Source: Mytilus trossulus (taxonomy: Eukaryota). Taken from it: a stretch of DNA of 64,000 nt. The notes beneath the pieces are model-generated. The model ran no database searches and was not told where the DNA came from. It was given only the letters and a program-made list of their open reading frames with translations. Made by a program: the position numbers and the translations under genes. Location of the stretch: assembly GCF_036588685.1 (NCBI RefSeq), contig NC_086376.1, positions 45,446,001 to 45,510,000 on the forward strand. Direction: 5' to 3'. Below, piece after piece: positions 3,837 to 62,719 of this stretch (the first letter of the stretch is position 1; every line of letters begins with the position of its first letter).

Positions 3837-4254
3837 CTGAAAATATAAATTTTGAACATGAGAAAACGTATATTGTGACATAATTCAGAACTATAAAAAA
3901 AGAAATGAAGCAGGTACTCTTTATCAGTTGTTTTAAGTATAAAATCAGGGAGAATTAGTTTTATGTGACAATATGGCCTTTGTTTATTGTTGGTGATGGT
4001 CTGTGGTGACCATTATATAAAAAGATACGTTAATGTAGACTTTCGTTGTTGTTTTGCTGGGCATTGAAAGTTAACAACGATATATAAGTGCCGCAACACA
4101 ATGGCCACCATAAATAATTAAGAAAATCCGTTTTTTTTTTAAATAATTCACTGGTAGCTTCATACAATTTTATGAATTTACAGATAAGCATCACAACACA
4201 CACCAATTACATTTTTCAATAAAGAGGTTAATTCAGAAAAACGTATAATGTTCT

Positions 4255-4475
4255 CAACCACAAAAGTATAAAAACCATGCATCCAATTTTCTAAATCATA
4301 ATTTAATAGTACATATATGAGCCGTTCACTTTTTTAAACCACATAAGTACAGCATGAACAATTCATTTTTTTAACCACAAAAGTACAGCATGAATCATTC
4401 AATTTTCTCGAGCACAAGGTACAGACCTGAACCATCCAGTTTTTCATCACAAAAGTACAGATAGGAACCATTCAA
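4255..4475. repeat. Degenerate ~35-bp minisatellite
   Basis: Recurrent ACCACAAAAGTACAGCATGAAC.ATTCAATTTT units. Confidence 0.65.
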
Positions 4476-4559
4476 TTTACTTAACTTGGAAAATAACACT
4501 ACAGTAAAGTAGCCTGAAAACCATTGTAATAACTTGGTAATAAGATATAACAATATAAC

Positions 4560-4850
4560 AGTAAATAAACTCATCATAGATACCAGGACTAAATTTAGAA
4601 TACATGCCAGACGCGCGTTTCGTCTACAAAAGTCTCATCAGTGACGCTCGAATCCAAAAATGTTAAAAAGGCCAAATAAAGTACGAAGTTGAAGAGCATT
4701 GAGGACCAAAGTTCCATAAAGTTTTGCCAAGACAGCATCAAATACTTCCATGCATGTAGACTTCAAGAAACAAAAAAAATAAGCTAAGGGACTTCATCAT
4801 CAAGATTTCTGGAAATAGAGAAACTCTTTCGCCAATTCATTATTGTTATA
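4560..4850 (-). mobile_element. Fragment of the family 1 hammerhead-containing (retrozyme/PLE-like) repeat
   Basis: Shares body sequence (GTTGAAGAGCATTGAGGA, ACCAGGA flank) with copies at 37350-37770, 43650-43770 and 50440-51515. Confidence 0.8.
4604..4647 (-). ncRNA. Type I minimal hammerhead ribozyme (family 1), partly decayed, in Nkx6 intron 2
   Basis: Minus strand reads GCGUCA CUGAUGA GACU-UUUGU-AGAC GAAA C-GCGC-GUC^UGGCAU. Core is intact; one A.A mismatch in helix II and one C.A mismatch in helix I. Confidence 0.75.
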
Positions 4851-7800
4851 ATTAAGGCAACAGTTGAATATAGCCATTTACTTCGAGGAAATCACATTGT
4901 ATAGAGAAAGAACAACAACAGAACATTTTCTAATCAAAGGCAAACAATAGAACTGTACAGTCCCGACAAAATAAAAAAAATATAATGAGAGATAAAGAAA
5001 AAACTCAGTTGGAAAATCATCAGATTTGGGGCAGACATTTTTTATACACCAAGAGAAACAGCAAAACAGTATCCCCAAATTTTTTAACAAACAACGTTAC
5101 TGTAGTCAGGGGAAAAAAAACCATTTGCTACAGATAGACATACGATGCAACAGTGCCGTTAAAAAAAACTTCATATTTGTTTAGACAAGTATGGAAAGAC
5201 CTGGAAAATGGTAAATGGTAAAATATCACCTACAATATCTTTATAATTTAAGAGATTTTAAGGCTAGATCGTCTAAGCAATCCAATAAATCTATCTTTTT
5301 ATTCAAGACATCCAAATCATATTAGTCCTGATTCGTCTCTGATCAGGTTTTATACCAATACATCACGAATACAAACAAAGCTATAATTCTTAGTCAATAC
5401 AGTTATTTGTTGAATGTGTATCATTGGAACTTAAAATGAAATAAATTAAAATATATTTTGCAGATATAACTTCCACTGATTGTCTTTGTAAATAATAAAA
5501 GTTGATTTACATACAAATGAAACAGTTAAAATCTACAGATTGTTGACATAGAATTAATGTGATTGGTAATTGTGAATTGCTTTTTGACAAATTACTGATA
5601 AACTAAATGGTAAATTTCCTATAACAATGAATTGCATTTTTACAAGAATATACAAAATGGAGAGATTTTTTTTAAACTGTCGTGCTTTAAAAGTCCTAAT
5701 TTTAAGTGCAATTTTAAGTTCGTTTGCTAAGTCCTATTACTTCTATTTACAACATTTGACATTTTAATTTGAAAAAAGCAATAAAAGAAGTGCTTGTTAA
5801 AAACATTAACAAAATGGTTTACTTTTACAAATTGTGACTTGGATGGAGAGTTGTCTCATTAATTGGCACTCATACCATATCTTTTTATGTCTATTATCTG
5901 TATAAATTTCCAAAAACATAATTGCCAAATTGTAACTATGTTTTTTTGTTCCCGGTTACAAAATAACTATGCTCTTTCTCAGCTACAAACAAATCAGAGA
6001 GAACATATTAACAACGGTCGTTTGGTATATTCAAATATTGGCCACGAAGTATGTCTATTTCTTATTAATCAAAACAGCTTCAGTTCACGAAAACAAATTT
6101 GAAGGGACAATATCAAAACAAAAATGATAAAAAAATGTTTTAAATGAAATAACATGCAAATCAGTTTATTCTAAGGTTTTTATTGTCAAGAAAAATCGAA
6201 GAAACCGTTTCTATTTAAAAATACACACACAACAAAACCAACAAATGGCAAGAAAAGAAATGCAGGGAAACAGATAAAGAATAATTCATCTTTGCCACGA
6301 AAACTTCTTAATTTATATCCAAATGATATTTTACAATACCAAATGTTAATCCATATATTTTTTACATGGAACAAATAAAATAAACAGAACAAAAACAAAC
6401 GAACAAAGTTCAGTTATAAACTTCTCTAATATGAATCAAAACATGGTGTAATATTGCAAGAACCAAAGAAATTTATTGTGTTTATAGGAATATAATTAAT
6501 ACCAATGTGCGGCAAATTTGTAATTTAGCTATTTGATTCTATTATTTACAAATTATATTTCATCAGAAGTGAATTTCTTGTATATGTTTTTCAATAAAGA
6601 AACGATTTGTGTTTAATTCGGCACGATCCTTAGCGGTAACAGGTGTTAATAACTAGGAGAAATTCATCTTATATACTTTTGAACACAACTAATTATCCAT
6701 GCCAATGGCTTCTTCAAATATCTCGATATTTTGAAATAATTTTTTTTTTACAAAAGTCAGCAAGTTATGTTTCCAAGTAAGAAAAACAGTTAATTGTCTG
6801 TATTCTCTGAAGCAAAAAATATCGATTGGTGACGTGTACAATTAAAACTTTAGACGAATGAAGGCAATGACCAAAGGGTATTTCTAATTCATCATTTGAA
6901 ATCAAATATATGCTCAGTATATATGTATGTAGTTATAATACATTTGATTTTCGATGATATATTATTGGAAACACATCATTGGTTGAGAGTGATGAGTGCT
7001 GAGTTCTATGCATAATGTATTGTCATTGAGTTAAACGAGTTATCATATTCACGACGAGGACAGTCAGATACCCGCTAATGGTATATATAAATTTCTCAAA
7101 TATGTTCTTTAGATTCAAAAACACTACAGTAAAACCATTATGATTTACGGAATAATTAATTTTAATTGATTTAGAAACATGAATGTCCTGGAATTTATTC
7201 AAAACAAAAGGTATATGTATAGACCTAATGAATTTTATAGATTGCGTATAGCCTGCTCGAAACCATTTATGAATATATTTAGTAGAAAAAAGTACCAAAT
7301 TGAGAAATGAAAAATATAGTGCCATTGCAATGCCATCGTTGAAGCTATCAACTTTGCAAATTAAAATTGTAACGACCCGACAATTTATACCGAAATAATT
7401 TACTTCATACGGGAACCTGTCTAGTTTCATTTGACAGTGTATAAACCGAACTCTGAAAAAAAACAGAACAACCAATAAAAAAGTATAACAACGAATTTAA
7501 AGGATACTGATGAACAGATATAACATTTGATTTGACGAATCAAAACAGGACCATGTCTATATGTAAATAAGTGCACAACGCAAAAATGACACAGCATTTT
7601 AACCATGTATTGTTTACAATTCGAATGTTACTCTCACCAACGCTTCCAACAATGTGTTTGGTTCCCATCAAAAAGTTAAAAATACTTAATATACTACAAT
7701 TTTATTTTCAGACTTTGTTGCGCCACTGTCAAATAAAAGACAAAATGAATGCACTATAAACATACGCAGATTACACAGATATATAGGAATTACTTAAAAC

Positions 7801-10800
7801 TCCAGTTAATTGCAACTAAACATAACACCCAGTAAAGTTTTCATAGCCAAATTGTTGTTGAGTAGATTTATTCTTGTTTTGTTAAATAGATAGCGATGAT
7901 AATGACGATGTATGTACAGTTTGCGGAATAGTTTGGTCCAAACAGTGGAATAATAAAACATTTTCATCTATCTAGACGTCCCGTGTCGGCTCCGTGTACA
8001 GACTTTTTATATATATATGCGAGATAGTCATTAGTATATGATGTGCAAGGGGGATTTGTTTAATCTGTCATAATTGTTAAACAAATTAAAGAAGGTATGA
8101 TTTCCCGATGCTGACACAGTGCATGAGGAATTTCCTTCAAAACCTCCAGTCATCTTAGTATTACAACTATTACATGTACAATCTCTATTGATTTCAATTC
8201 ATTATGTTCATATATTTTGTGCTAGACTAAATATAACATGCGAGGGGTATTACAACTTCAGAAGTTTTAATTTTATGTGACAAATTATCATAAAACAAGC
8301 GCGCATTCCAACACTTTAGTACGAGCTTAATATGCCGTTAAAATTAGTTATATATTAAATGTATAACGGCATGAAATGGTATTTGAATAATTCACATAAC
8401 ATTGCAATTGGCTATGCAGAATACTATGACACATATGCACTAAACGAATCTATACCAAAAACTGCTTTGGATCGTTATTCGGGTGGTAAAAAGGCACCAA
8501 ATCGAAGACCAGACTAAATTTAGATAAAACGCAATCAAATTATGAAGCCCACATTAACAAAGAACTGATATCGCATTTCACTACAGCTTTAATAAGTAGG
8601 GTATTCAAGAATATCTTCCCATAAAACGGTTAGTGACGTCAAATGTATTGGACTTGACGTTGATATCTGACCTGAGTCAATTTTATAGATAGGGTGATTT
8701 AACCATGATATACCAACTGAAAATCGGGATTAGAAGAAAAATATAAAACTTAAAAGAAGTGGTATGGTGCATTTCGTATTATTGGCGATACGAGTGTTTA
8801 CTCTACGTTTATGCTCAAAGATAAGACCTTTTTTGTGTGCTTATATAAATATATAATAATTCCTTATTAGGTCGTACATTCGTCTGCCACAGGGAATAAA
8901 GATATATACAAATTCTTTCAGCGCTATAACTTAAAACTGACTGATAATTGTTTGTATTTATGTTCATCAGCCCGAATTAAGTGGTTTAATGGTGGTTTAT
9001 TAAAGTCCAAGACATTAAGCAAGCACTTTTCTAATTCCCATGAACTTTCAGGACATGGTGGTCTTCGACAATAATTTTGACAACTGAACCTATATATGGC
9101 AAGTATAAGACTCTCTCAAATGGTTTTGAGTAATGAAATTTTTTTTAAAAGATTATGATTATATAAAGTTTTTGTTAAATCATTGCGTCTGGTATATTTT
9201 GGGATAAATATCGATTCACCTATTTAGAGTATGAAGCAACACTTTATATTTCAGTTTGAAAGACGACGTTTAAGATATCGTCTTCTTAACTGAATTAAAA
9301 TTTTGAACACGTGCTTATCATTTTTTTTTTTATTATTGAACAAGATTGTGTGTTTTCTTTACTATATATGACGTGGCTGAAAAAAAATGCATTCACGGTT
9401 TTAAAATGAAAACAAAATATTTTTTTCGAACAAAATATTAGCTGTAGAAAAAAACCTGAGCAGATTTATATAGAAGTTCAAAAGGGTAAAAATTGCACTT
9501 TAAAAAATCCAAAAGTAAAGGGATTACTCAATGTACCGTTGTCAAAATCCATAATTGAAATTATAAAAATATCATGCACCTCACTGCATGTACCCGGATC
9601 AATTCAAGTTTTAAACGTTTTAAACTATTTTTTTCATTTAGCATTCATTTCATTTAACATCTGAATGATTTGATCGTCATAGGTTATTAAGTAGGAAAGC
9701 AGATTTTAGCCCACAAATGTTCATGAAGTTTATCCGTGCTTTTTGTTAACTTGAACATGGCATCTTAATTCTGACCTAAGCCGTGTCGTGGCTTTCATAT
9801 TTGTCGTAGGACCTCTCTGTGATCAACAATTACCTTTTTGCTAAATGGAGGAAATTTAATTAATAAAATATCAAACATAAATTGTTTGATCCTTCCTCTA
9901 TCATAAATGTTTCAATTTCTATTTCAAACGGCTAATTTATAGTTGCTTTTTGCCAAATTTCCATAATCCCTAAAAAGTCTAACGAATACAGAGGAAATTA
10001 ACAATCGATGTAAACAGATAAATAACTGGGCTGTAATGGACTCTCATTATCTCACGAAGACATTAAGCCTTTATAATTATATAAAATCTTCAGCATTATT
10101 GTTCTCTTCTCATACACCGTAAATGTTCAAACACGACCGTTCAATCTATTAACAGCCAAAGTCACAAAGGAACGAATTATGACGCAGCCAAGATAATGAT
10201 CCATGGAGATCGAACAATAAAAAGCCACTTGGCTGATTTGTAACTTTGCAGCTTCAGAAATTAATCCAATTCGAATGAACGATCATTTACCATAGAAATA
10301 TCCCATTTATTGAAATTCGCTAGTCGAATTTATTCAAACAGCTTACGTTTGGTGTGTTTGCTAATAATTCATCTTCTTTCGCTTTAATGGCTCTCCCCAC
10401 TTCATCACATAATTAAGAGACTATATATTCGATTGTTCCTAATGAAATTTCACACAATTCTTATATTAATTTCGTCTTCACTGTTCATGTTTAGTCAATC
10501 GACAGTTGCCCCTCTATTTTCATTAGTTTTTACGGTTAATTGCCCAAGCAAGATAGAAAAGTGACGAATTTAACCAAAGACCTTGCCTGACGCCTTTTTA
10601 TTTTCAGATTGGACTTTTCGTAAATTGATTTAGATGTTTTCTAGTTAATATTTCATACAAATGCACTTTTGTTTAAGCATAATAAGATGAATTAGTTAAG
10701 AGACAATTCGTGTAACCATGTTGTATGAATGTGTATATTAGTCAGAGAAAAAAAATCAAGTCACTTATAATTGAGTACACAAATACATTTTTCATTCTCA

Positions 10801-13509
10801 AAAAATTCTGTCATTATAATTTTAGAAAAAAACTCCTATAAAGTCTGGCTCTACTGTTAACATTTATAGCTTCAATGTACCACGTCGGTTTGTTCAATTT
10901 TTGTTTTATTGCACATTAAGACGAAGCTACTTCGGACGAATAAATAAACCTTAAAGTTTTATAGTGCAATTTTTACTATTATTCCATTTAATCTTAAACC
11001 GGATGGGTTTGGTGCATAATTTGTCCGAGAAAATGGCAAACGGATATGCCTTCTAATCCAGCCAAGCAACCTTAAATAGTGAATGAAATATTTAGAAGTA
11101 GAAATTTAGAAGTAGTAACTTCGCAAAAATTGTCGAACAATTAAGAGTTAATACCTTTCAATAAAAGTTTATTCTTATAGTATTTAGTGGTTTAAAATCT
11201 ATAGAATAGTACTAAATAGTTCATTTCAAGGGATAAAATGAAAAGAAATGTCAATTGTCGACGTACAAATGGCGCTTGGGCTTTGTGGTGTTTCAGACAT
11301 CTGTGTGATAAGTTTACAAACGCTTTGATGACCAAGTTTCCTTTAATCGTTCAAATTGATGCGAAAATGAAAGTAAATCTTGTGAGGATAACATAAACAT
11401 AAATTTTGTACTCAACATCAATCCTGTCAATAAATGTTATGACTATTAGTATGAAATATACCTATTGCAGATGTTACGGTGTCTTAAATTAGAATTGTTC
11501 ATTTTGAAATTTTCATATTTTCGCTTAAGGAATAATCCATGTAGAAAAGTTCTTTTGACAGATAATCATGTTTACTTTAACTGTGATATTAAATGTAATG
11601 TACAAAAGAGACCATTTCCACAAGTTCAACAAACAAATGCTGTTTTGTGCTTTTGTTCTATACTAATATCTTCCGCATGAACGAAAAGCCCGATGCTTTC
11701 ATAAAACAATAACCATTCTTTAAGTAAAATAAAGGAAAATGATTTAACTGGGCATTTCATTTCGCATGGATAAAAGATTTTTATTGGCCATAAATGAAGC
11801 ATTCAGACATTGTAAAAGGCTGATTGAAAACATTATTATTAGTAATTGTTTTCCTGATATGTATACATAGTCATCTAAGTGAACCCAATTGATGAATAAT
11901 AATATATATGTATATTATGCTAAATAAGATTTTTAAACTTATAAAAGGTTAATATTCGGACCCATGAAAGCCCTATTAAATTAGAAAATAATTCTGACAA
12001 TAAGGGCGAATTCCCAAATGCAAATCAGGACACCGGGTTTTGTTTTATTTTTATTTGGTGGACATGCCTCAAGAGTGCATATTGAATGCATATGAATTAA
12101 TACATTTTATTCTCTGTATATATTTCTAATTTTCTTTTTTTTGAAAGTGAAATAAGGCATGGTAACAGAAAACGGGGGCTAATAATCCCAAGAGATAACA
12201 TTTTCATTTGACCCTCAAATAAAAATTCAATTACATAATGAAAATCGATTTTAATTTACTGAAAAGAGCGATTATGAAATTTAACGATAACTATTTAAGA
12301 AATTGAACAATAGTTAAGGATACAGACATTAAAGAGTGATAACTAAATTAAATGAATCAAAGAAACCGCCTGTAGGTATGTAACGAGAGATTAAAGCTGT
12401 ACTTAAGATGTGGTGAAGGAATCAATGAGATTTTCAAAATCAAAGGATCACTTTCAGGTAATTGTCGAGGTATCATTTCCTCGTTTTTGGAATTTTATGT
12501 AATATTAACCCAACCCTCTTTGATAAGCTCAGGTGCTTACTTTCTGTTCAAAATAAATATTTCAGTCAATTATTTGACCGAAAGCCGGGTATCATTAAGA
12601 AAATTGATACTTGAAGATTTAAGTAAAAGAAAAATCCTACTTAAATTGTCTTTCCAATTTCTAAACTACTGCAGGCTTTATATATATATATATATAAATA
12701 TCATTTTAGGAACAATCAGGGTAAGAACATGTTTAAAAGAATAAGTTAATAAGTATCAAAATATTTATTTTAAGTTTGTTAAAATGTGAATCATACATTC
12801 GCACTCTTTGCGCCGGACATTGTATAACTTGTAATAACATTTCATTTTGTTTTTTATAAAAATTGCAAAATGCAAACGAATATATAAAATCAGAAACATT
12901 TTGACCAAAAAAAGAAGCGACAAATTCCTTAATTTTCTAGCAATAAATTCTGATATACATTAACTCTCACGTGTACATCAAGAAAAGATGAAGAAGTATT
13001 AATTGAGAATTATACCTCATCATCTTTTATAAACAAAAATAAACTTTCATTGATGTTCGTTCCTGTGTAAATAAAATAAGAAATTGACGGCTTTATCTTA
13101 ACGATTGTTTAACGGGAGCTGTCTCATAAAGTAAAATATAATGGACATTCGTTTGTAATTAAGACCATTTTGTTTAAGATCTGTTTAATGTTCTATCAAA
13201 TCTCTATTTTCTGCAATTAGAAGAAACGGAATTTCACGCCAAATTAATAAAGAAAAATATTCAAATATCTACCTTGGGATTAATTTAAAGAACTTTGAAC
13301 TCATTTAATTCTTTAGAAGATGGCGGTATTATATTTGAATATTGTACTTCTGTTAATGTGTGTTTGTCTATATCGATGTTCTTTTGATTTTTTGGGAAAT
13401 AATGAAGCCCCATCTTGGATGCAATAACAAGTTTATTCTTTATAGAACCTTCTTGAAAGTTAAGAATGTTAAAAAAAAACTAACCAAAAACGGACCTAAT
13501 GGTTTTACA

Positions 13510-13665
13510 CTAGTAATTTTTGGGCCCTTTATAGCCTGTTGTTCGGTGTGAGCCAAGGCTCCGTGTTGAAGTCCGTACATTGACCTATAATAGTTTACTT
13601 TTTTTAAATTGTTATTTGGATGGAGAGTTGTCTCATTGGCACTCACATCATATCTTCCTATATCT
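13510..13665 (+). repeat. Family A-related subfamily (ends GGATGGAGAGTTGTCTCATTGGCACTCACA..CTTCCTATATCT)
   Basis: Related copies at 5813-5892, 30850-30997, 32700-32802 (-) and 54147-54232 (-). Confidence 0.8.
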
Positions 13666-14364
13666 GTTAAAACTTAGAAGATATTTAACAATATTTCAAC
13701 AACAACAAAATTAAGCTCATAATTTTTTTCGTTACGACTTTTTTTTCTCTGTTGTCACAATTCTTTTGAAAAAATGAACGAATCAGCTGGACTATCAACT
13801 TTTATCGTCAAAAAGATTCGGCATAGGACACATATTATTTTCCCAATTACTCTTATTTGAGCACAACAAGTCTGCAATTTTGTGGAAGCATTTTTTGTTT
13901 ATATATATTCTCTTAAACGTACTGTCATGATCTTGTGTGCTGCTGCTGTTAACTCACATATACGTAATCAAATGTGAAGTCTTGTTTGAATCAATCATGA
14001 TTTATATTGGTCATGGAATTGCAAAAATCAAAAAAATATTTTGAAAATACTTGTCACTGGCTAAGAGCGATACTGTAGATCTATATTTACTTTTGTCTGA
14101 ATTCCATAATTATGAACCGAACCCAACCTACCAAAACTTATATCGTAATAAACTCTATATACGACTTTCTGTTTCAATATAATAAATTATTTTGCTTAAT
14201 CAAATTTTCAATCAACTATGGTCACATGTGCTAAGAATGGACTCTGGAAACTCTAGAAAGATTCATAGTTAGTTGAATTTAAGATGAAATGTTTGTATTT
14301 GTTAGTTTGTTTTTATTTTTTGGTGGTGGGGTATGATATACGATCAATTATATACATTGTATAT

Positions 14365-15284
14365 ATATAAACGAGTCTAAATTGAAAACTACGTTCAAAC
14401 CTATGACTGCGTTGGATAAAAACCGCAATTTTTATACGTGTGCATGTCAAACAAATTTCGTTGTAGAAGGGTCTAAAAACAGCACAAACAACATTTTCCA
14501 AAGGACCAAAAGAGTGAAAAAGTAAATTTAAACAAAACGCATTTGACTAACAGGTCGAACAACTGATGTTCTTTAACCCTGCTGACTGCCATTGGCGATT
14601 GCCAAATAAAATTGATCACAGGTTGTAACAAAATGGATCTTATTATAAATTTAATACGTCACAGAAAGAAAAAAAATTTGTTAACTTGTGGACAGGATGT
14701 TGTGCCACAAACATTCGGTGTCAATATTTCTTTAGTACACCATATCCGGATTTCGACAATAAATGTCTCTTCAGTGATGTTAGGGATCGAAACGGTATTT
14801 GGAAGGCCATATAAAAAGCACCCTCATTTTTAGAGAAAGTACCCTCATTTTTAGATTAACTCTTGAATTTTAAGAGTCAATATATAGGATGAACGGATCA
14901 TATAAACCGGAGGGAAAATATGATACATGCCCAAACAAAAAATATAAACGAGTCTAAATTGAAAACTACGTTCAAACCTATGACTGCGTTGGATAAAAAC
15001 CGCAATTTTTATACGTGTGCATGTCAAACAAATTTCGTTGTAGAAGGGTCTAAAAACAGCACAAACAACATTTTCCAAAAGACCAAAAGAGTGAAAAAGT
15101 ATATTTAAACAAAGCGCATTTGACTAACAGGTCGAACAACTGATGTTCTTTAACCCTGCTGACTGCCATTGGCGATTGCCAAATAAAATTGATCACAGGT
15201 TGTAACAAAATGGATCTTATTATAAATTTAATACGTCTCAGAAAAAAAAAAATTGTTAACTTGTGGACAGGATGTTGTGCCACA
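14365..15284 (-). mobile_element. Partial-tandem insertion: two ~345-bp near-identical direct repeats flanking a hammerhead-containing spacer (577-bp period)
   Basis: Repeats at about 14365-14709 and 14942-15284 differ by only a few bases. ACATTGTATATATATA is present at both 14354-14369 and 15282-15297 (TSD-like). Confidence 0.8.
14737..14780 (-). ncRNA. Type I minimal hammerhead ribozyme (family 2), all helices intact, in Nkx6 intron 2
   Basis: Minus strand reads ACAUCA CUGAAGA GACA-UUUAU-UGUC GAAA U-CCGG-AUA^UGGUGU. Helix I is 6 bp, helix II 4 bp, helix III is the palindrome AUCCGGAU, and the triplet is AUA. Confidence 0.8.
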
Positions 15285-16363
15285 TTGTATATATATATAT
15301 ATATGCTTGTTCGTGAATTTAAGTATCAAGTTCTAGAGATTTTAACTTCATGCATGGATGTAAATTGTAAATTATTCAAAAGAAAATCAAAATTTGTAAA
15401 CAAAAATGTAGAGTTTGATTTTCATTTATAGCATCGATTTTTGGCCAATATTATAAGTTTAATGAAAACTAAATAAACTAATTCCAAAGACTCTCTAAGC
15501 AATGAAACAATAGTTTCAAAGGGACACTACCAAAAAGCAAAGAAAGACTCACAACCAATTGTTGTGACTATCTCATAATATTAGATATTTATTATTTTTT
15601 AAAAAGGATTGCCTTAATGTTAATGATGCATCAACATACAAGCTGTGTTTTCACTTTTATCTTTCCTCTTCAACGCCCATTCCCTCACTGTCGCACAACT
15701 CTTTCATGAAAATCTGCGACATCAGATTAAGCAATCAACGGTCCCCGCAGGTGCACCATGGGAATTGAATTTATCAGGCAACATCCGTGACGACATAATG
15801 AGATGAAATTAACGACCAATACAATTATCCGTTATATCAGCCGTTAGATCAAGCGCTAAATGATGCGTTCACAAACCAAGATTTATTGAATTAACAAAAG
15901 AGGCTTATTTAGAATATTTCTTATAATTAGATAAGTCTTAAGTACCTGTGGATAAGGGGATATAAATCACTTAAGCTATTGTCATCTTTGTTAACCAAGA
16001 TATACGATAGCAGTAGGTGGTATCTGAAAACGATTCGAGACCGTAGCGTGTCATGTTAACATGATATGTGGCTGTTCAGATATTGTAGCGATATTACTAG
16101 TTGAACACTGTAACATAGATTATGGGGTGTTTTTTTAGCAAGGTTCTTTGGGAGTGGGGAGTCGGTTCTTTATGACAACTGACAGTTTCTCAGTCGAAAC
16201 GTTATAATTACAAAGTCTTAAAAAATTATGAAGCATAGCCCACCAGATTCTAAGATTGACTGATCTTTTGCTTCTGCTGAAACCTGATATAATATAAAAT
16301 AAAATAAAACATGAAAAAAATAGTTTTTAACACAGTCTCCCTCCAAAGTATATCCGACGCTTA

Positions 16364-16780
<417 letters not shown>

Positions 16781-36900: not shown

Positions 36901-37386
36901 TTAGATGTTAAAAAAAAGTAAAGCAAAAATACAGTACTCAAAGGTAATTCAAAAATGAGAAAGCCACTATAACTAAAAAATTCAAGCACGAGGCCTTATT
37001 GTATTGTTTGTCGTATTGTAGACCAGTCATGTAATTTTTTTCATTGTACTGCTATATTTAACATTGTAATAAAAGCGGGAGGTTTGGCAAAACACAACAC
37101 CAGGTTCGACCCACCATTTTTTCTCTAAATGTCCTGTACCAAGTCAGGAAAATTTCCATTGTTAAATTAAAGTGCGTTTCTGTGTGTGTTACATTTAAGT
37201 GTTGTGTTTTTGTTGTGTCGTAATTCTCCTGCTGTTATATTTGATGTGTTTCCGTCAGTTTTAGTTTGTAACATGGATTTTCTCAATCGATTTATGAATT
37301 TCGAATAGCGGTATACTTTTACCTTTATTTATTTATATATGTTTGTTTGAAACAGTTATCAAAGTTACCAGGATTATAATTTAGTA

Positions 37387-37428
37387 CGTCAGACGCGCGT
37401 TTCGTCTACATAAGACTCATCAGTGACG
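37387..37428 (-). ncRNA. Type I minimal hammerhead ribozyme (family 1), intact
   Basis: CGUCA CUGAUGA GUCU-UAUGU-AGAC GAAA C-GCGC-GUC^UGACG. Perfect 5-bp helix I, 4-bp helix II and palindromic helix III ACGCGCGU. Confidence 0.88.
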
Positions 37429-37721
37429 ATCATGCCAAAATATTCATAAAGCCAAACCAGTACAAAGTTGAAGAGCATTGAGGATCCAAAATTCCAAAAA
37501 AGTTGTGCCAAAAACGGCAAAGGTAATCTATGCCTGGGATAAGAAAATCTAAGTTTTCTAAACTGCTAATTTATAAAAATTACCACATTATTAATATTCA
37601 TGTCAACACCGAAGTGTTGACTACTGGGCTGGTGATACCCTCGGGACGAAATGTCCACCAGCAGTGGCATCGACCCAGTGGTGTAAATAGTTTTCAAAGG
37701 TACAAGGATTCTAATTTAGTA

Positions 37722-37763
37722 CGTTAGACGCGCGTTTCGTCTATATAAGACTCATCAGTGACC
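37722..37763 (-). ncRNA. Second hammerhead of the tandem unit; core intact, helix I damaged
   Basis: GGUCA CUGAUGA GUCU-UAUAU-AGAC GAAA CGCGC GUC^UAACG, located 335 bp from the 37387 copy. Confidence 0.7.
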
Positions 37764-38184
37764 CTCATATTATTTGAAAATTGATAATACTTTAATACAA
37801 AATATTAACAAACACTTAGATATGGTTAATGCAAAAAATGTTCTAAAATTGAATGGCGTAACGGATGCCTTCTCATATTGGGTTAAATGTGTATTGTTAT
37901 TCGTATGAATTGTTGTTAAACACATCCTCCGTTATTCCAAGCTGGTTAAGAACATATTTTATATATATTTAGAAACATATCACAAATAAATATGCGTATT
38001 TGAATACCAGTTTGATAATTTCTTTATTTGATAAACACTATTCAACTTAATGTACATATAGATGATGAATGATTTTACATTCAAGTTACAGCTTACTACC
38101 ATTACCTTTACTTATAACATTCTGAACCCAGTTTTGCAAGGTAGGTTTTGACTTAGATATATCTTAAGTAGGTTTTTTTAGAGC

Positions 38185-43017: not shown

Positions 43018-43698
43018 ACATACTTAGTATTTATTGAATCATATTATTTTTATACAAAAAAATCACTTTCTTTGAAGAAGTGACAAATTATATTTACCAA
43101 AAGCTTAAGAACAACCAAAAAATTTATTAAAACTGACCACATATTGACGTTTATTTTAAATTGACAACATTTGTGTTACTAGTACCTTTGATGAATGTAT
43201 TATTTATCAGTAAGTCGACATTCCTAAGGGAACCAATCGTGTTTTCCTCTTGCAATTTTGTTACTTTTATTCGTATATAGTATATATGAGCTACTGGTAT
43301 ACAATATTAACTTTTAACCTTAAACGTTACATTACGAATTATAAGTGACGTCCTTTTTTAATTGTTTAATCATAATTTAGTGGACCATTGTGGTAAAAAA
43401 TACATGTTGCAGATGAGGAATAAGTATAAGTTCCACTTGTCGTTATCACAACTATCGGGAAATAAGCAGGATTAGTAAAGGCAACACAACGGATGTCGCT
43501 ATAGCTCAATAGAATCTGTTTATCCTTCATTATTATCTTAGGTTTGGTTAATGTTGCTCAATCGTTTGGTTTCGGTGAAAAATTGTGTTTAGGTTTTCTT
43601 CGACTCTGGCTTTTTAATTCGCAATTAATATATTCTTTCCTCTTTTATAATGCTCTTCAACTTTGTATTTGTTTGGCATTTTAACTGTTTTGATCTGA

Positions 43699-43742
43699 GC
43701 GTCACTGATGAGTCTTATGTAGACGAAACGCGCGTCTGGCGT
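43699..43742 (+). ncRNA. Type I minimal hammerhead ribozyme (family 1), intact
   Basis: GCGUCA CUGAUGA GUCU-UAUGU-AGAC GAAA C-GCGC-GUC^UGGCGU, with cleavage predicted after 43736. Embedded in the family 1 repeat body (about 43650-43770). Confidence 0.9.
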
Positions 43743-49169: not shown

Positions 49170-49400
49170 GGTGATTACATGTATATCAATTATATAGTCA
49201 TTTTTTTATAAATTAACTGTTTGCAAAGGTATCAATTATTCTAAATACTAAGAATTTTCTTATCCAAGGTAGATAACCTTCGTCGTATTTGGCACTATTT
49301 TGTGAAGTTTTGGCCATTAATGCTTTTATTTTTGTTTGGATTTCTATGCTATTTTTACCTGAGTGTCACTGATGAGTCTTATGTAGACGATACACGCGTC
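49170..49400 (+). mobile_element. Decayed family 1 unit ending in a hammerhead remnant
   Basis: GAGTGTCA CTGATGA GTCTTATGTAGAC GATA CACGCGTC at 49361-49400 (GAAA changed to GATA), preceded by the family body sequence. Confidence 0.7.
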
Positions 49401-49433
49401 TTAAAATGGCATATGCCAAGTTAGTAAAATGGC

Positions 49434-49623
49434 AATTTTCTTTTCTTGGACTGTGATGTTCCTTCGATCCCTTCTTATGGTATTTTCACTTCTCAACTTT
49501 GAAAATGCTATGCTTGAGTCTGTATTGAGGTTTTATATCTCAATGATGGAAACTGTTAAATCATAAAGTCAGACATTTTGTTGCCATAAATCATTTCACA
49601 ATTTTACTAAATTCTTTCAAAGA
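49434..49623 (+). pseudogene. Decayed Penelope-like element reverse transcriptase (thumb region) fragment
   Basis: Manual translation gives NFLFLDCDVPSIPSYGIFTSQL*..YA*VC...; after a frameshift, FCCHKSFHNFTKFFQR. This resembles the PLE motif NFPFLDxDVPxxPSYGVYISQLxRxARVC...YHKLxKxFxKF as I recall it. Contains stops and a frameshift. Confidence 0.65.
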
Positions 49624-49814
49624 TCCTTAGATGCAAAATTTCTAAAAATGAACTTCATGGAAACTTTGTATATGATGATGGACGTTTTAAGCAACTTTGA
49701 ATGGTTAAACAGCCCTCGCACGGTACTTTTTTTTATATAAAATCTGTACAAACTATTTAAGCAAATAATTCATCGAATAAACTTATCCTTAAAAGATATA
49801 AATTAAACACTGTA

Positions 49815-50360
49815 ATAGATAAAGGCAACAATAGTATACCGCTGTTAGAAATTCAAAAAATCGATTGAGTAAAAAACAAATCCGGGTTACAAACCAAAAC
49901 TGAGGGAAACACATCAAATATATGAGAAGAACTACGACACAACAGAAACACAACATTAAAATGTAACACACAAAGAAACGACGTCTAATATAACAATGGC
50001 CATTTTCCTGACTTCGTACATGACATTTTTAAAAAAATGGTGGGTTAAACCTGGTTTTGCGGCATGCCAAACCTTCCGCTTTTATGGCAATGTTTAATAT
50101 AACATTAAAATGACAACATGACAGGACTACAATACAAATAAATGATAGAACATATAGGACAGAGAAACACACGAATAAAAGGTGCCAGGTTTAAATTTAA
50201 TACGCCAGACGCACGTTTCGTCCTCACAAGACTATATATAACCAGTGACGTTCAGATGAAAAAAGGTTGAAAGCCAAAACAAGTACAAAGTTGAAGAGCA
50301 TTGGGGACCAAACGTTCCAAAAAAGTTGTGCATAATAAGGCTAGGGTTTTCTGTCTAGGA
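49815..50360 (-). mobile_element. Composite element: family 1 hammerhead unit fused to family C repeat
   Basis: Hammerhead remnant at 50201-50250 continues through GGCGTATTAAATTTAAACCTGGCACCTTT directly into the family C body. The same junction occurs at 53775-54360. Confidence 0.7.
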
Positions 50361-50439
50361 TGAGAAACTTTAAATAATGTGTTTTTGGTACCAACATGTT
50401 GGGTTTTTTTTATCAATTATAACAACTTTTTTATTCTCC

Positions 50440-51515
50440 GACGGTATCACCAGCCCAGTAGTCAATACTTCTGTGTTGACATGAATTAACATTGATATTG
50501 TCATAATTATGATTAACTGTTTACATAACTTTGAGTTTTTGAAATGCTAAGGCTTTTCTACCTTAGGAATGTATTAACTTACCTGTATTTAACAAAACTT
50601 TTAGACATTTTGGTCCTCAATTCTCTTCAACTTCGTACTACATTTTGCCTGTTTTAACTATTTTTTATTCGAGTGTCACTGATGAGACTTTTGTAGACGA
50701 ATTGCACGTCTGGTGCAAATACAAAACTTCAATCCTGCTATCTATGATGTGTTTATTTACAACCACTCGTTCAATTCCACTGCTGGTGAATTTTTTACTC
50801 CCCGAGTGTATCACCAGCCTAGAAGTCGGCACTTCTGTGTTGACATGAATTGTTATAGATATGGTCATAATTATAAATTAACTGTTAACATCACTTTGAC
50901 TTTATGAAATACCAAGTCATTTCTACCTTAGAAATAGATTGTAACCCAGATTTTTTTTTATCTATTGATTTATGAGTTTCGAACAGCGGTATACTACTGT
51001 TGCCTTTATTTACCTTAACTGTATGACAAAACTTTGAGGACATTTTGGTCCTCAATGCTCTTCAACTTCGTACTTTATTTGGCCTTTTAGTCTTTTTCTA
51101 TTCGAGCGTCACTGCTGAGTCTTTTGTAGACGAAATGCAGACGCGCAAACACAAAATTTCAATCCTAGAATGAGTTTATTGACAACCACTGGTTCGAAGC
51201 TACTGCTTTCGGTGTATTTATTACCCGAGTGTATCACTACCTCAGTGGTCGGCACTTTTGTGTTGACATGAATTACCATTGGTATGGTCATAATTATAAG
51301 TTAACTGTTTACACAACTTAGAATTTTTGAAATACTAAGGCTTTTCCACCTCAGGAATATATTACCTTCGCCATATTTGGCAAACTGTTAAGAATTTTTG
51401 AATCTTCGAACTTCTAACTTTTTTTATTCGAGCGTCACTAATGAGTCTTTTGTAGACGAAAAGTGCGTCTGACATATAACAAAATTGTATTCCTGGTATC
51501 TATGTCTATGATGAG
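50440..51515 (+). mobile_element. Decayed tandem array of about 3 family 1 retrozyme units
   Basis: Hammerhead remnants at about 50671-50716, 51104-51145 and 51430-51473, each with a core mutation (GAAU, CUGCUGA, CUAAUGA). Spacings are 433 bp (including a ~70-bp family C insert at 50941-51011) and 326 bp. Confidence 0.8.
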
Positions 51516-58432: not shown

Positions 58433-60158
58433 CTAGAAGACACCCGCGAAATCGCGGGCATTCAGAGCGTAGTTTAAAGTATGAAAAGTGATGTTGGAAG
58501 AATTTGTAAAATATTGAATGACTGGAGAATTTCAGCAAAATTATCATAAGTCATAGGTTATTGGGGACAGGAAAATGTTGTTTTTTTTACCCCTCCTCCT
58601 TTATTTCCAATATTCCCATTTTTTTGGTTTTCTATTAATTTCAATGTGAACATACTTAAATTAGTATGTTATGAACATTCAAGTAAGTAGCCTGTAATTC
58701 AGTGGTTGTTTTTTTGTTTATGTGTTACATATTTGTTTTTCGTTCATTTTTTTTTGTACATAAATAAGGCCGCTTGAATTGTTTTACATTGTCAGTTCGG
58801 GGCCTTTTGAAGCTGAGTATGCGTTATGGGCTTTGCTCGTTGTTGAAGGTCGTACGGTAACCTATAGTTGTTTTAAATATCTGTGTCATATTAGTCTCTT
58901 GTGGAGAGTTGTCTCAACATGGCAATCATACCACATCTTCTTTTTTTTTTGCAATCAATGAATTTTGTAAAAGATTTAATGACTGGAGAATTTCAGAAAA
59001 GGTATCAAGAGTTCACATGAACATTTTTAGCGCTTATCTGTATATTATGAACATTCATTTAAGAATTGAGTGCTTCTTTATGCGATTGTTTACGGAATAA
59101 CATGTGATGTGCAGTAAGCCAATCAGAATAACGTATTATAATATTATAATGAAACTTACATCTATAAAATGTAATTATTACTATATAAATGTAGTGTATT
59201 TACTTTCAATTCGAAGTTTTCTAATCGATGCATAGTGGTCATTGATATAGTATACAGACCCTCTATTAAACTCTGTGATTGCCGTGGATAGTAAACTTGA
59301 AAATGATAGCAGATAGAATTCTGAAAACACACTTTATTCTTTGTATATGCATGTTCAAAGTATACAGAAAAACGCAAACCGGAAGTCTAATCTGACTTAA
59401 AATTTCGTCCAATGACGGGACAATATCCGGATGCCTTTTTTCTCGTTTTTCTCCAAAAATAACTCAATCTGAATAATCATATGGATGGATGACAAATGGC
59501 ACTATGCACTGTACCTATAGGACACAGAGGCGTGTTGATTAATTTATTGTGGAAAGAAGAGAAGCGACACCAAGAATGAGGTCTTCTCGTTTAATAGTAT
59601 AGATTCATTTAAGAATTGAGTGCTTCTTTATGCAATTGTTTATGGAATAACATGTGATGTGCAGTAAGCCAATCAGAATAACGTATTATAATATTATAAT
59701 GAAACTTACATCTATAAAATGTAATTATTACTATATAAATGTAGTGTATTTACTTTTAATTCGAAGTTTTCTAATCGATGAATAGTGGTCATTGATATAG
59801 TATACAGACCCTCTCTATTTATTAAAATCTGTGATTGCCGTGGATAGTAAACTTGAAAATGATAGCAGATAGAATTCTGAAAACACACTTTATTCTTTGT
59901 ATATGCATGTTCAAAGTATACAAAAAACGCAAACCGGAAGTCTAATCTGACTTAAAATTTCGTCCAATGACGGGACAATATCCGGATGCCTTTTTTCTCG
60001 TTTTTCTCCAAAAATAACTCAATCTGAATAATCATATGGATGGATGACAAATGGCACTATGCACTGTACCTATAGGACACAGAGGCGTGTTGATTAATTT
60101 ATTGTGGAAAGAAGAGAAGCGACACCAAAAATGAGGTCTTCTCGTTTAATAGTATAGA
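58433..60158 (-). mobile_element. Non-autonomous Helitron with duplicated 5' end
   Basis: Minus strand starts A|TCTATACTATTAAA at 60158 and ends with the hairpin CCCGCG-ATTT-CGCGGG followed by TCTTCTAG|T at 58433 (A^T target, no TSD). Tandem ~550-bp duplication at 59054-59603 / 59604-60158. Confidence 0.85.
58687..58950 (+). repeat. Family A 3' half nested inside the Helitron
   Basis: AGCCTGTAATTCAGTGGTTG...GGCAATCATACCACATCTTCTTTTTT. Confidence 0.8.
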
Positions 60159-62719
60159 TGTGTTTTCGTTTAACTCGAGAGTAAATTATTTTGTCTAATT
60201 CTTAAAACGGGATTGATGTTATTAACTCAAAAGTCGTTAATTCAGAAACTCCTTAACTATTTAATCGTACTACTGTCACTACTATCAGTGTAAATGTTTT
60301 TTGTATTAACTAGATTGTTTGGTTTCAAACTTTAGAGCATTTGATTGTAGTTTGATAACTAAAATATAGTGGAATAGTCATTTTAATAATTTTCTTTAAA
60401 AACAGATTAATATTAGTATGTAATTTAAAGATTATGTGATAACGCAAACATAACCTCGCACCTAAAGATGTAAAACCATGAAACCGACGAGCAGTTGCCC
60501 TTAGGCTATAATTTTTAGGTATTTTTCCCATGGTCTCTTCAACTTTTTCTGTTCGTTTGATCCCCCAGGCTTTCAAATGTTTCAACTTCAAGAGCGCTTC
60601 GGACCGCCGCATGAATTTTGTAAAGTGTTGTTTTCATATTTTGATTTAAACTTATTTATTTTTTAAATTTTGCATTTTTTAATTTATCTTATCAAACGCA
60701 CTAAGATTATCTTATGTTCAACAGGGAAAAAAACACTATGGGTTCTCTTCTCATCCAAGGTCTTGTGATATATGACTTTTATGTTATTATGTCTATTACC
60801 CTTGTTTCTGAGGTTCATCAGTTGTATCAAGGGTGTGCAATTAAGTGCGTTGTGATGCAAACATTTAAACAACAAAAAAATTGTACATCTTGCACAAACT
60901 AGATCTAAGTCTGTTATTAACTACCAGGCATTTTCAGTTCTATGTAGCCATTAATAAAGAACAAATCCTGCAATACATACGAAGGACACATGTTTCAGGA
61001 ACAACCGTTATCGCGTACTCATCAGCCCGAACGTTTGACGAACAAGAGGAGGCATAACCCCCTAAATAGCGCTTACAGAAATGCTATATTCGTTAAAACT
61101 TATAAGAGATAGAAAAGTAGCAAGGCTTATTCAATGAAATGAGAAAAAAATAAATAGTTCAGAGTATACATTTCAAATTTTCGAAAATTTCCATAAAATT
61201 AGAAATAACGCAACTAATCTATCTGGACCTTCTTATACTGTTTTACATGAAATTCACAATCTGCAAATTCAATACTTTAAAGCAGAAAGTATGTACTTTT
61301 TGAATTTTGAACTAATCAGTTAAATGCTATATATGTTTTGCATATTGGATCTTTTTTTAAACTCAGAATTTCGAAGTTGTGAAACTTAACACAGTTTTAA
61401 TAAAGAAATTCTGACACATATTTTGGTGATGGAACGAATATTTGGAGATAAAACTATCCTGCGATTAGAAACATTTTTGGTAAACTGAGTCATAAGGAGG
61501 CACATTTCAGCAAATTCATTTTAGCTAAGCAACCTAGCTTGATAATACTTTACTTATTCATTTACGCATGCGTATTAAAGATGAACAGAAAATGAAATTT
61601 AACAGTTAATAAAATAAAGAGTACAGTTTCTTGTTGAATAAAGAATGTGAAATAGAATGTAAAATTTATTATAATTAACGATGGAATGATACGATCTTAT
61701 TGTCAACGCGAAAATTTTATATCCATCATGAAAAACGATTATTAAGTTTAAATAATGTCAAAATACCCAAATTGAGACGTGTTGTTTTATCGGTTTCTCC
61801 CAGAAATCTTTAATCTGTCATTAATGAAGATTAATGATTCTAAAACGACATTAATTCAAATTTATGTCGAAGTTTTGAAGAATTTGTTTGTCGCGTTTCC
61901 ACTTTTATTCCTTGCCGACCCCGACAATACTTTGTTTGGACCATGTCACCAGAACAGAGGTATAAAGCGATCATGGGGGTATACTTGACATGCAAGATGT
62001 TTAATTTGACAAAATCGACACAATTATCAAATAAAAGTCACAATTGGACTGTTTAATTCTACCCATTTATTTGATAATGCATGAAAACTGAACAATGAAA
62101 TTGACCACGAACAACTTAAGATGTCCAAATGTGAATACTCCTTATTGGATATCATCAGAGTAGAATAAAACATTTTCTTCTTCAATGTAATCAAGAGGTA
62201 ATTAATAGAGGATTTATTCCATAATAAAACTTCTATTAATATGAATTACTGTCGTCTAAATAAATACCCAATAATGGTGACACGACTATAGTCTACAAAC
62301 CGCAATCATTTCACCATTTTCAAAAAACTCTGTTATTTCGATATATCAAGTTAATCACATAAAAAAGTGAAAATATGTATAGTCTACAAGCTTCATGCTC
62401 TAACGATGATGAATTGCATGTGGTCGTAGTCCAAAAAATCACTGTAGAATAATTCAAATGAAAAAAACGAACATTTACCGCACCCTTTTGATAATGAATA
62501 GTTATAAACTCGCTTCCAAGGAAGAGGGTATTCACACGTTCTTCTATCTATGCACCCGTCTGCTCCATGACATAAATGTCGATCTTTTCTCATGAGCTAA
62601 AGTCAAAGCTTCTTGACGTTAGTTTTAAGATTCAGGTAAGCATGCTATACTCTCTGATCCATTTGTAGATTTGTCTTTCAATAAGTTAATGTTTACATAA
62701 TATTTATTGAATCTTATAA

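Follow-up and report, generated by a model that had tools for sequence, protein, structure and literature searches.

The Locus

The 64-kb window (the whole stretch of DNA analyzed) carries on its minus strand a homeobox gene, which we take to be Nkx6-like. Its last intron contains an insertion that is without an open reading frame of at least 100 aa. The features considered here are:

21340-20840, 16690-16520, and 3836-3650, minus strand: three homeobox-gene exons (Pfam Homeodomain)
3837..16519, minus strand: host intron, GT..AG, 12.7 kb, splitting the homeodomain; the insertion lies inside it in sense orientation
14365..15284, minus strand: whole insertion, 920 nt, equal to 1.59 units of the putative 577-nt retrozyme
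14365..14941, minus strand: complete 577-nt unit (34% GC), closed by the fixed 3' terminus of the family
14942..15284, minus strand: extra 0.59 unit, 5'-truncated (the second "345-bp repeat"), with 3 nt at its 5' end common to the target
14365..14381, minus strand: the fixed 3' terminus, TTTAGACTCGTTTATAT, which passes into (TA)n
14354..14369, plus strand: left copy of a 16-nt duplicated target, ACATTG(TA)5
15282..15297, plus strand: right copy of the 16-nt duplicated target
14737..14780, minus strand: minimal type I hammerhead motif with a CUGAAGA core and a palindromic helix III (AUCCGGAU)
14892..14963, minus strand: candidate reverse-transcription start signal, common to Neptune/Nematis-type Penelope-like ends

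An earlier sequence-only reading described two almost identical repeats of about 345 bp around a spacer of about 230 bp, and took them for a 1.6-mer with a 577-nt period inserted at a TA microsatellite between flanks resembling a target-site duplication. Measurement bears this out. The direct repeats span 345 nt (14365-14709) and 343 nt (14942-15284), differ by 4 substitutions and two 1-nt gaps, start 577 nt apart, and enclose 232 nt (14710-14941). The duplicated sequence, ACATTGTATATATATA, has exactly two occurrences in the window, identical to each other, one at either end of the insert; the TA repeat accounts for 10 of its 16 nt, and 3 more (ACA) are common to the unit at the 5' junction. 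The 4 substitutions of the window copy appear in no other of 186 aligned units, which marks it as a young copy although not the youngest. With a single ribozyme, it cannot release a unit by itself. Judged from its sequence, the locus would be an ordinary dead-end copy. Beside the insertion, the flank at 14000-14350 is single-copy in the assembly and almost uncovered in the contigs of four public runs, which leave out 14000-14284 altogether; filtering, divergence, or presence–absence variation are possible reasons.

A Family with One Fixed End

The repeat is not a chance one, given that the genome contains at least 204 matches to the unit (from 39 of 722 candidates scored), mostly at 98–99% identity and arranged head to tail. 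Tandem arrays of the unit, as had been anticipated, are present: the 150 matches listed fall on 13 contigs, and the largest arrays extend up to tens of kilobases.

Ends were compared in a sample that combined the arrays listed, those recovered by a search with the ribozyme part, and copies met by chance in other loci, with duplicates removed. An insertion was called young if it had at least 97% identity, a closed 3' end, and at least 80 nt. On the hammerhead strand, the 3' terminal base is the same in 36 of 41 young insertions and, with no identity cutoff, in 44 of 56; the five young insertions that deviate stop at 288 (where another element interrupts the copy), 299, 379, 449, and 536. Directly past the fixed end, 31 of the 36 continue into (AT)3 or longer, in keeping with the insertion at a TA microsatellite proposed in the earlier reading. 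The closed 5' ends (34 of the 36 insertions), in contrast, are spread over unit positions 14-573, with TA letters at 28 of them. The permuted copies that had been proposed as a check are therefore not freely permuted, as only the 5' end varies. This pattern, in which one end is fixed and the other scatters, is that of target-primed reverse transcription, and it is very probable that the inserted retrozyme was written in this manner.

The last junction of an insertion carries a further trace. Internal junctions read TTTA in 121 of 123 cases, whereas in 19 of the 36 insertions the last junction has TA or TG in place of TT (TATA/TGTA). The difference reads as a primer scar, in which the target appears to overwrite the template. 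Such overwriting is expected if priming occurs from a nicked TA end paired to the UUUAUAU tract.

Two readings that dispense with this route can be weighed here. Arrays of up to tens of kilobases and the higher-order repeats described below would suit dispersed satellite DNA, spread at the DNA level, in which the ribozyme is incidental or dead. Against it stand the fixed versus scattered ends, the primer scars, the targeting of (TA)n, the strand-specific RNA, and a double change, both detailed below, that keeps helix III palindromic; the polarity of the ends already largely refutes it, and we consider it very improbable. The window copy in isolation, with its near-identical terminal repeats and duplicated target, could also be taken for a small LTR element whose LTRs measure 345 nt (a TRIM or a plant-type LTR retrozyme), or for a locally duplicated SINE. 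The repeat length differs, however, in nearly every insertion, and thus the 345-nt repeat reflects the truncation point of the window copy rather than an LTR. Moreover, the ribozyme is of type I and lies outside the repeats, and the duplicated target has 16 nt, not 4, so that a plant-type LTR retrozyme (type III ribozymes in fixed LTRs, 4-nt duplication) was rejected. As to a SINE, the earlier reading had reasoned that 345-bp repeats without the hammerhead elsewhere would indicate one. Such pieces do exist (L089, L118, and L121), but they keep the family's 3' end, making them truncated copies and not an independent SINE. We give the LTR and SINE readings next to no weight.

By script, a clear duplicated target is present in one of 34 insertions, the window copy; the only further candidate, L035, consists mostly of TA. 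By eye, L054 has a duplicated target of 16 nt with one mismatch and a 3-nt overlap. Apart from the window copy and L054, the duplication is either invisible or absent in the remaining 32 of 34. Sister subfamilies occur in L095, L107, and L116, at 77–92% identity and with a period of about 550, helix III AUCUAGAU, and the same fixed end.

The Hammerhead and Its Transcripts

The hammerhead, at 14780-14737 of the minus strand, reads ACAUCA CUGAAGA GACA-UUUAU-UGUC GAAA UCCGGA UA/UGGUGU, with the predicted cut (slash) between 14743 and 14742. A scan of the window against Rfam gave no match at the gathering threshold, and the hammerhead call therefore rests on the motif. The exact motif has 361 copies in the fetched loci, where overlapping loci are counted twice. 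Its helices differ from those of family 1, a shorter family, in the ways the sequence-only reading had stated. The claim that the two families are separate likewise holds outside the ribozyme, where their alignment score of 40 is not above that of shuffles (mean 33, max 55). Copies of the shorter family (335-nt period) occupy 37350-37768, 43685-43742, and 49349-51470 of the window, and the end-signal model R1, introduced below, has no match in them.

Folding predictions suggest how such a ribozyme could act. A single copy misfolds, whereas the ribozyme folded with a second copy adopts a double-hammerhead shape via the palindromic helix III (-24.7 kcal/mol). The hammerhead of the 577-nt family is thus predicted to need a dimer, and in newt satellites hammerheads of this kind reportedly act as dimers. 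In a sister subfamily, helix III is kept palindromic through a double change, giving AUCUAGAU. Folding of the whole unit is no better than that of shuffles (z -1.36). The 12.7-kb last intron of the homeobox gene contains two sense-strand hammerheads, the one at 14780-14737 and a family-1 copy at 4647-4604. We speculate that free retrozyme RNA, by pairing through the palindromic helix, could cut the homeobox pre-mRNA.

RNA was sought in four raw-read runs from two studies, possibly of a sister species, with 6–18% of each run read. The runs gave 1655, 2384, 532, and 204 reads on the unit, which may derive from any copy of the family rather than from the window copy specifically. The first two counts come from 8.7 and 8.3 million reads in runs X21 and X22. 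In most stranded libraries, the first mate is antisense to the RNA. First mates lie on the plus strand at 14765-14784 in ratios of 503:20 (X21) and 725:32 (X22). Assuming antisense first mates, these two of the four runs support, at the level of the family, the earlier suggestion that the hammerhead strand is transcribed; in X23 and X24 the strand bias is weak. Reads across the unit junction number 168 and 357 in X21 and X22, roughly three quarters of the local depth, and fit circles and uncut multimers equally. Depth steps from 368 to 562 and from 498 to 782 across two bins meeting at 14744/14745, two bases from the predicted cut; no pile-up of read ends at the predicted cut was listed. Contig depth summed across the 3' end reaches very high values, although it is not a copy number.

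An End Signal Shared with One Penelope-like Group

Directly 3' of the family's fixed end lies a pattern of AG(A/G)C..UAU plus a bulged hairpin. In the window its parts are AGAC (14955-14952), UAUAU (14946-14942), and the bulged hairpin GUAUC..GAUCC (14926-14895). AGAC, UAUAU, and GUAUC-stem-GAUCC are also found at the ends of an intact Penelope-like group in the genome, whose frames of 901–959 aa encode an RT, a Cys linker, and a GIY-YIG domain at the C-terminus. The domain order and the CX2-5CxxC-type linker, as described in passages of PMC8557442, suggest the label Neptune/Nematis-type for this group. Other Penelope-like groups in the genome are a second C-terminal-endonuclease group and Naiads with an N-terminal GIY-YIG domain.

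In 12 autonomous ends from seven families, 96.7% of hairpin cells are paired and two-sided changes affect 5 of 8 pairs, although the structure was read off the same sequences as were tested, which favors pair counts. None of 500 shuffles is as high on paired share and covariation score, whereas 265 of 500 reach the observed number of changed pairs. The covariance model R1 was built from the autonomous ends of the seven families alone, with the retrozyme left out. Over the 64-kb window, its top match is 14963-14892 (32.1 bits, E 0.0005), with AGAC in register; the next match scores 16.4. Among six Naiad loci and three second-group loci, no match exceeds 21.6 bits, and the match with that score lies on the strand opposite the element, about 1.1 kb past its stop. 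All 10 of the autonomous signal patterns checked have at least one (TA)n-terminated genomic end. Six signal-bearing families group together on one side of a moderately supported branch (78/94), and in five of the seven autonomous families the alignment shows two signals, separated by about 90 nt.

These shared ends indicate, with good though not full confidence, that the Neptune/Nematis-type Penelope-like clade supplies the copying enzyme of the 577-nt retrozyme. Another enzyme, from the Naiads or the other C-terminal-endonuclease clade, would make the signal a relic of origin or a coincidence. Naiads favor (TA)n according to passages of PMC8557442, the second C-terminal clade of this genome also ends in (TA)n, and the unit is without extended homology to the signal-bearing families. 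Nevertheless, the signal is in register with the fixed end and absent from the Naiad and other-clade loci checked, and a signal descriptor, albeit one written with the retrozyme in view, had 11 matches in 200 window shuffles. We consider a different enzyme improbable.

The earlier reading had offered a choice between cDNA of a circular RNA and a Penelope pLTR-type partial tandem. A retrozyme copied by a Penelope-like enzyme is likely, so that the two options are not rivals. No extended DNA similarity between the unit and Penelope-like families was found in the loci compared, and none of 70 loci with Penelope-like frames has an element with the unit as its pLTR; within these loci, a detached pLTR is not supported. 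The best local alignment of the unit with Penelope-like loci scores 48 against a null maximum of 45, a marginal excess. Each partner search scored 150 candidates, and a closer partner may exist. Five loci considered as pLTR neighbors (L085, L095, L107, L109, and L113) proved to be separate insertions into adjoining (TA)n.

Two further observations concern carriers of the signal. A second non-coding element forms short tandems, often beside the arrays (L031:3459-4843 and the flanks of L095 and L105), and has two copies of the end signal at 17.6–27.1 bits. By eye it shows a tRNA-like stretch, in which ARAGORN finds no tRNA, and no canonical hammerhead was seen. It is likely another client of the same enzymes. 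In addition, signal-bearing families in L093, L095, L111, L114, L124, and L127, mostly with two end signals about 90 nt apart, have in their 3' UTRs what look by eye like atypical hammerhead cores (GAAA-UA-UU with CUGAUGA, CCGAUGA, CUGACGA, CCGAAGA, or UUGAUAA).

Array Variants and the Form of the Template

The hairpin lies beyond the copied end, and thus the template must continue past it, as either a circle or a multimer. Variants within arrays bear on this choice. Among 29 arrays with at least two full units, 13 have a minor variant in every unit (two of the 13 are neighbors sharing one variant); examples are the variants present in 11 of 11 units in L039 and L047. Divergence is 0.24% within arrays versus 0.51% between them. 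Array-fixed variants fit repeated, rolling-circle copying of one monomer, and they also fit expansion at the DNA level. Variants shared by only some units occur in 11 of the 29 arrays, some of them in adjacent units, and in the C14 array a foreign insert is repeated at one unit position and higher-order repeats occur. DNA-level duplication therefore also acts.

The same enzyme and signal could instead use a linear multimeric template, either uncut or cut in part, with long arrays made uniform by later unequal exchange between overlapping ends. The subset-shared variants and the higher-order repeats of C14 are in keeping with this, and 3 of the 34 5' ends lie at the predicted ribozyme cut, as linear cut templates would give. 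Passages of PMC11167929 report that a Poseidon element used unprocessed RNA in vitro, its ribozyme being dispensable, and the parts of a 2026 preprint considered here (bioRxiv 10.64898/2026.07.22.740005) propose local expansion by unequal crossover. Conversely, where the 5' partial unit covers the variant site (L039, L042, L048, and L055), it too carries the array-fixed variant, and hence both end units already shared it. In L049, 59G is common to four units although the overlap is only 19 nt. By eye, no ordered series of unit variants recurs between unlinked arrays of the sample; sources may lie outside the sample. On balance, a linear template is unlikely, if worth keeping in mind, whereas the sequence patterns make it reasonably likely that a circle is the usual template.

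The predicted cut site coincides with one of the 15 ATAT/TATA words in the unit; an enrichment of 5' ends there was accordingly set aside as confounded by TA microhomology. The insert of the C14 array (L058 and L059) is an element of about 1.1 kb, repeated along the array at unit position 290 and presumably Helentron-like. It ends in the same letters as a duplication with a 550–555 period at 59053-60159 of the window.

A Proposed Route of Copying

Our main reading, to which we assign a probability of about 0.6, is that 14365..15284 is a young, 5'-truncated 1.59-unit copy of a 577-nt hammerhead-bearing non-LTR retrozyme family, written into (TA)n by a Neptune/Nematis-type reverse transcriptase, likely from circular RNA. 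The interpretation given in the sequence-only reading is, overall, supported.

The notion is that arrays with at least two ribozymes would be transcribed, and the RNA cut into 577-nt monomers and ligated to circles. The Penelope-like protein would bind the bulged hairpin and nick (TA)n via its GIY-YIG domain, whereupon the nicked TA end could pair with the UUUAUAU tract, which lies some 16 nt 5' of the hairpin. The enzyme would then travel round the template, copying from 1 to 14 units or more, and break off at differing positions, often where the target offers a short match. Some arrays may later grow via DNA-level duplication.

More tentatively, and at a little under even odds, the signal of about 60 nt could be a start address for the whole Penelope-like clade, such that unrelated RNAs become mobile by carrying it and the enzyme rolls circles into arrays in a single step. 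In that case, (TA)n sites could receive copies of any circular RNA furnished with the signal, and one route would exist from circular RNA to satellite-like DNA arrays.

Relation to Known Systems

On all the sequence-level features compared, the 577-nt family appears to be a non-LTR retrozyme. Specifically, it is non-coding, with one type I hammerhead per unit, dispersed head-to-tail repeats, a GC content below 45% (34%), no LTR, and a target duplication longer than 4 nt. Its unit is above the 150–450 nt range given in passages of PMC7229834 and inside the 51–972 nt range given in those of the 2026 preprint.

Cervera and de la Pena (2020; PMC7229834) described, in the passages considered, non-LTR retrozymes of Mytilus galloprovincialis with units of 350–390 nt, and proposed that a Penelope-like or LINE enzyme, with no particular enzyme named, copies the circles. 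The 577-nt family resembles these retrozymes in its type I hammerhead, its low-GC non-coding tandems, its duplicated target of more than 4 nt, and its high transcription. It differs in its length (577 versus 350–390 nt, or 150–450 nt overall) and in its ribozyme helices. It could be the second mussel ribozyme family of that paper, whose passages used here mention neither a fixed end nor a (TA)n target nor a start signal. For its retrozymes, that paper demonstrates circles and cleavage, whereas the 577-nt family is known here from sequence and reads. A search of titles and the starts of abstracts found neither a 577-nt mussel family nor the hairpin described, and PMC12602865 offers nothing pertinent.

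The 2026 preprint proposes, in the parts considered, that Penelope-like enzymes are hijacked by retrozymes, without settling on a mechanism. Its link rests on pLTR sequence homology in Xenopus and on co-occurrence, whereas the link of the 577-nt family is a shared structured end signal only. Craig et al. (2021; PMC8557442) characterized Neptune and Nematis, in the passages used, by a C-terminal GIY-YIG domain with a CX2-5CxxC linker and a microsatellite bias, and reported non-autonomous Chlamys elements such as MRC1, clients that form head-to-tail multimers. Those clients are similar to their partners in 3'-end sequence, and the passages mention no hairpin or stem-loop.

For Poseidon_Ac, Frangieh et al. 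(2024; PMC11167929) found initiation inside the RNA in vitro; two alternative start sites explain genomic "tails," and sequence 3' of the start is required, as stated in the passages considered. The Mytilus elements are similar in that the start would lie inside the RNA and in that five of seven families have two signals. In Poseidon_Ac, the start shows no homology to the cut DNA, and tails are 30–40 nt long. In the 577-nt family, by contrast, the start tract matches the targeted (TA)n, and the client, a non-coding ribozyme repeat, has a single site.

As far as the passages considered go, the Discussion of PMC7229834 and the 2026 preprint leave open by which enzyme animal retrozymes are copied and how priming works on a circle without a free end. 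The value of the 577-nt family likely lies in a signal that points to both an enzyme clade and a start base. The family comes with a candidate enzyme whose genes are intact, with a start base that is defined, and with a small covarying hairpin and a known target; given these, the question of retrozyme copying becomes a direct in vitro test. The kind of element, a non-LTR retrozyme, is known; what is new is a Neptune-type end signal on a retrozyme.
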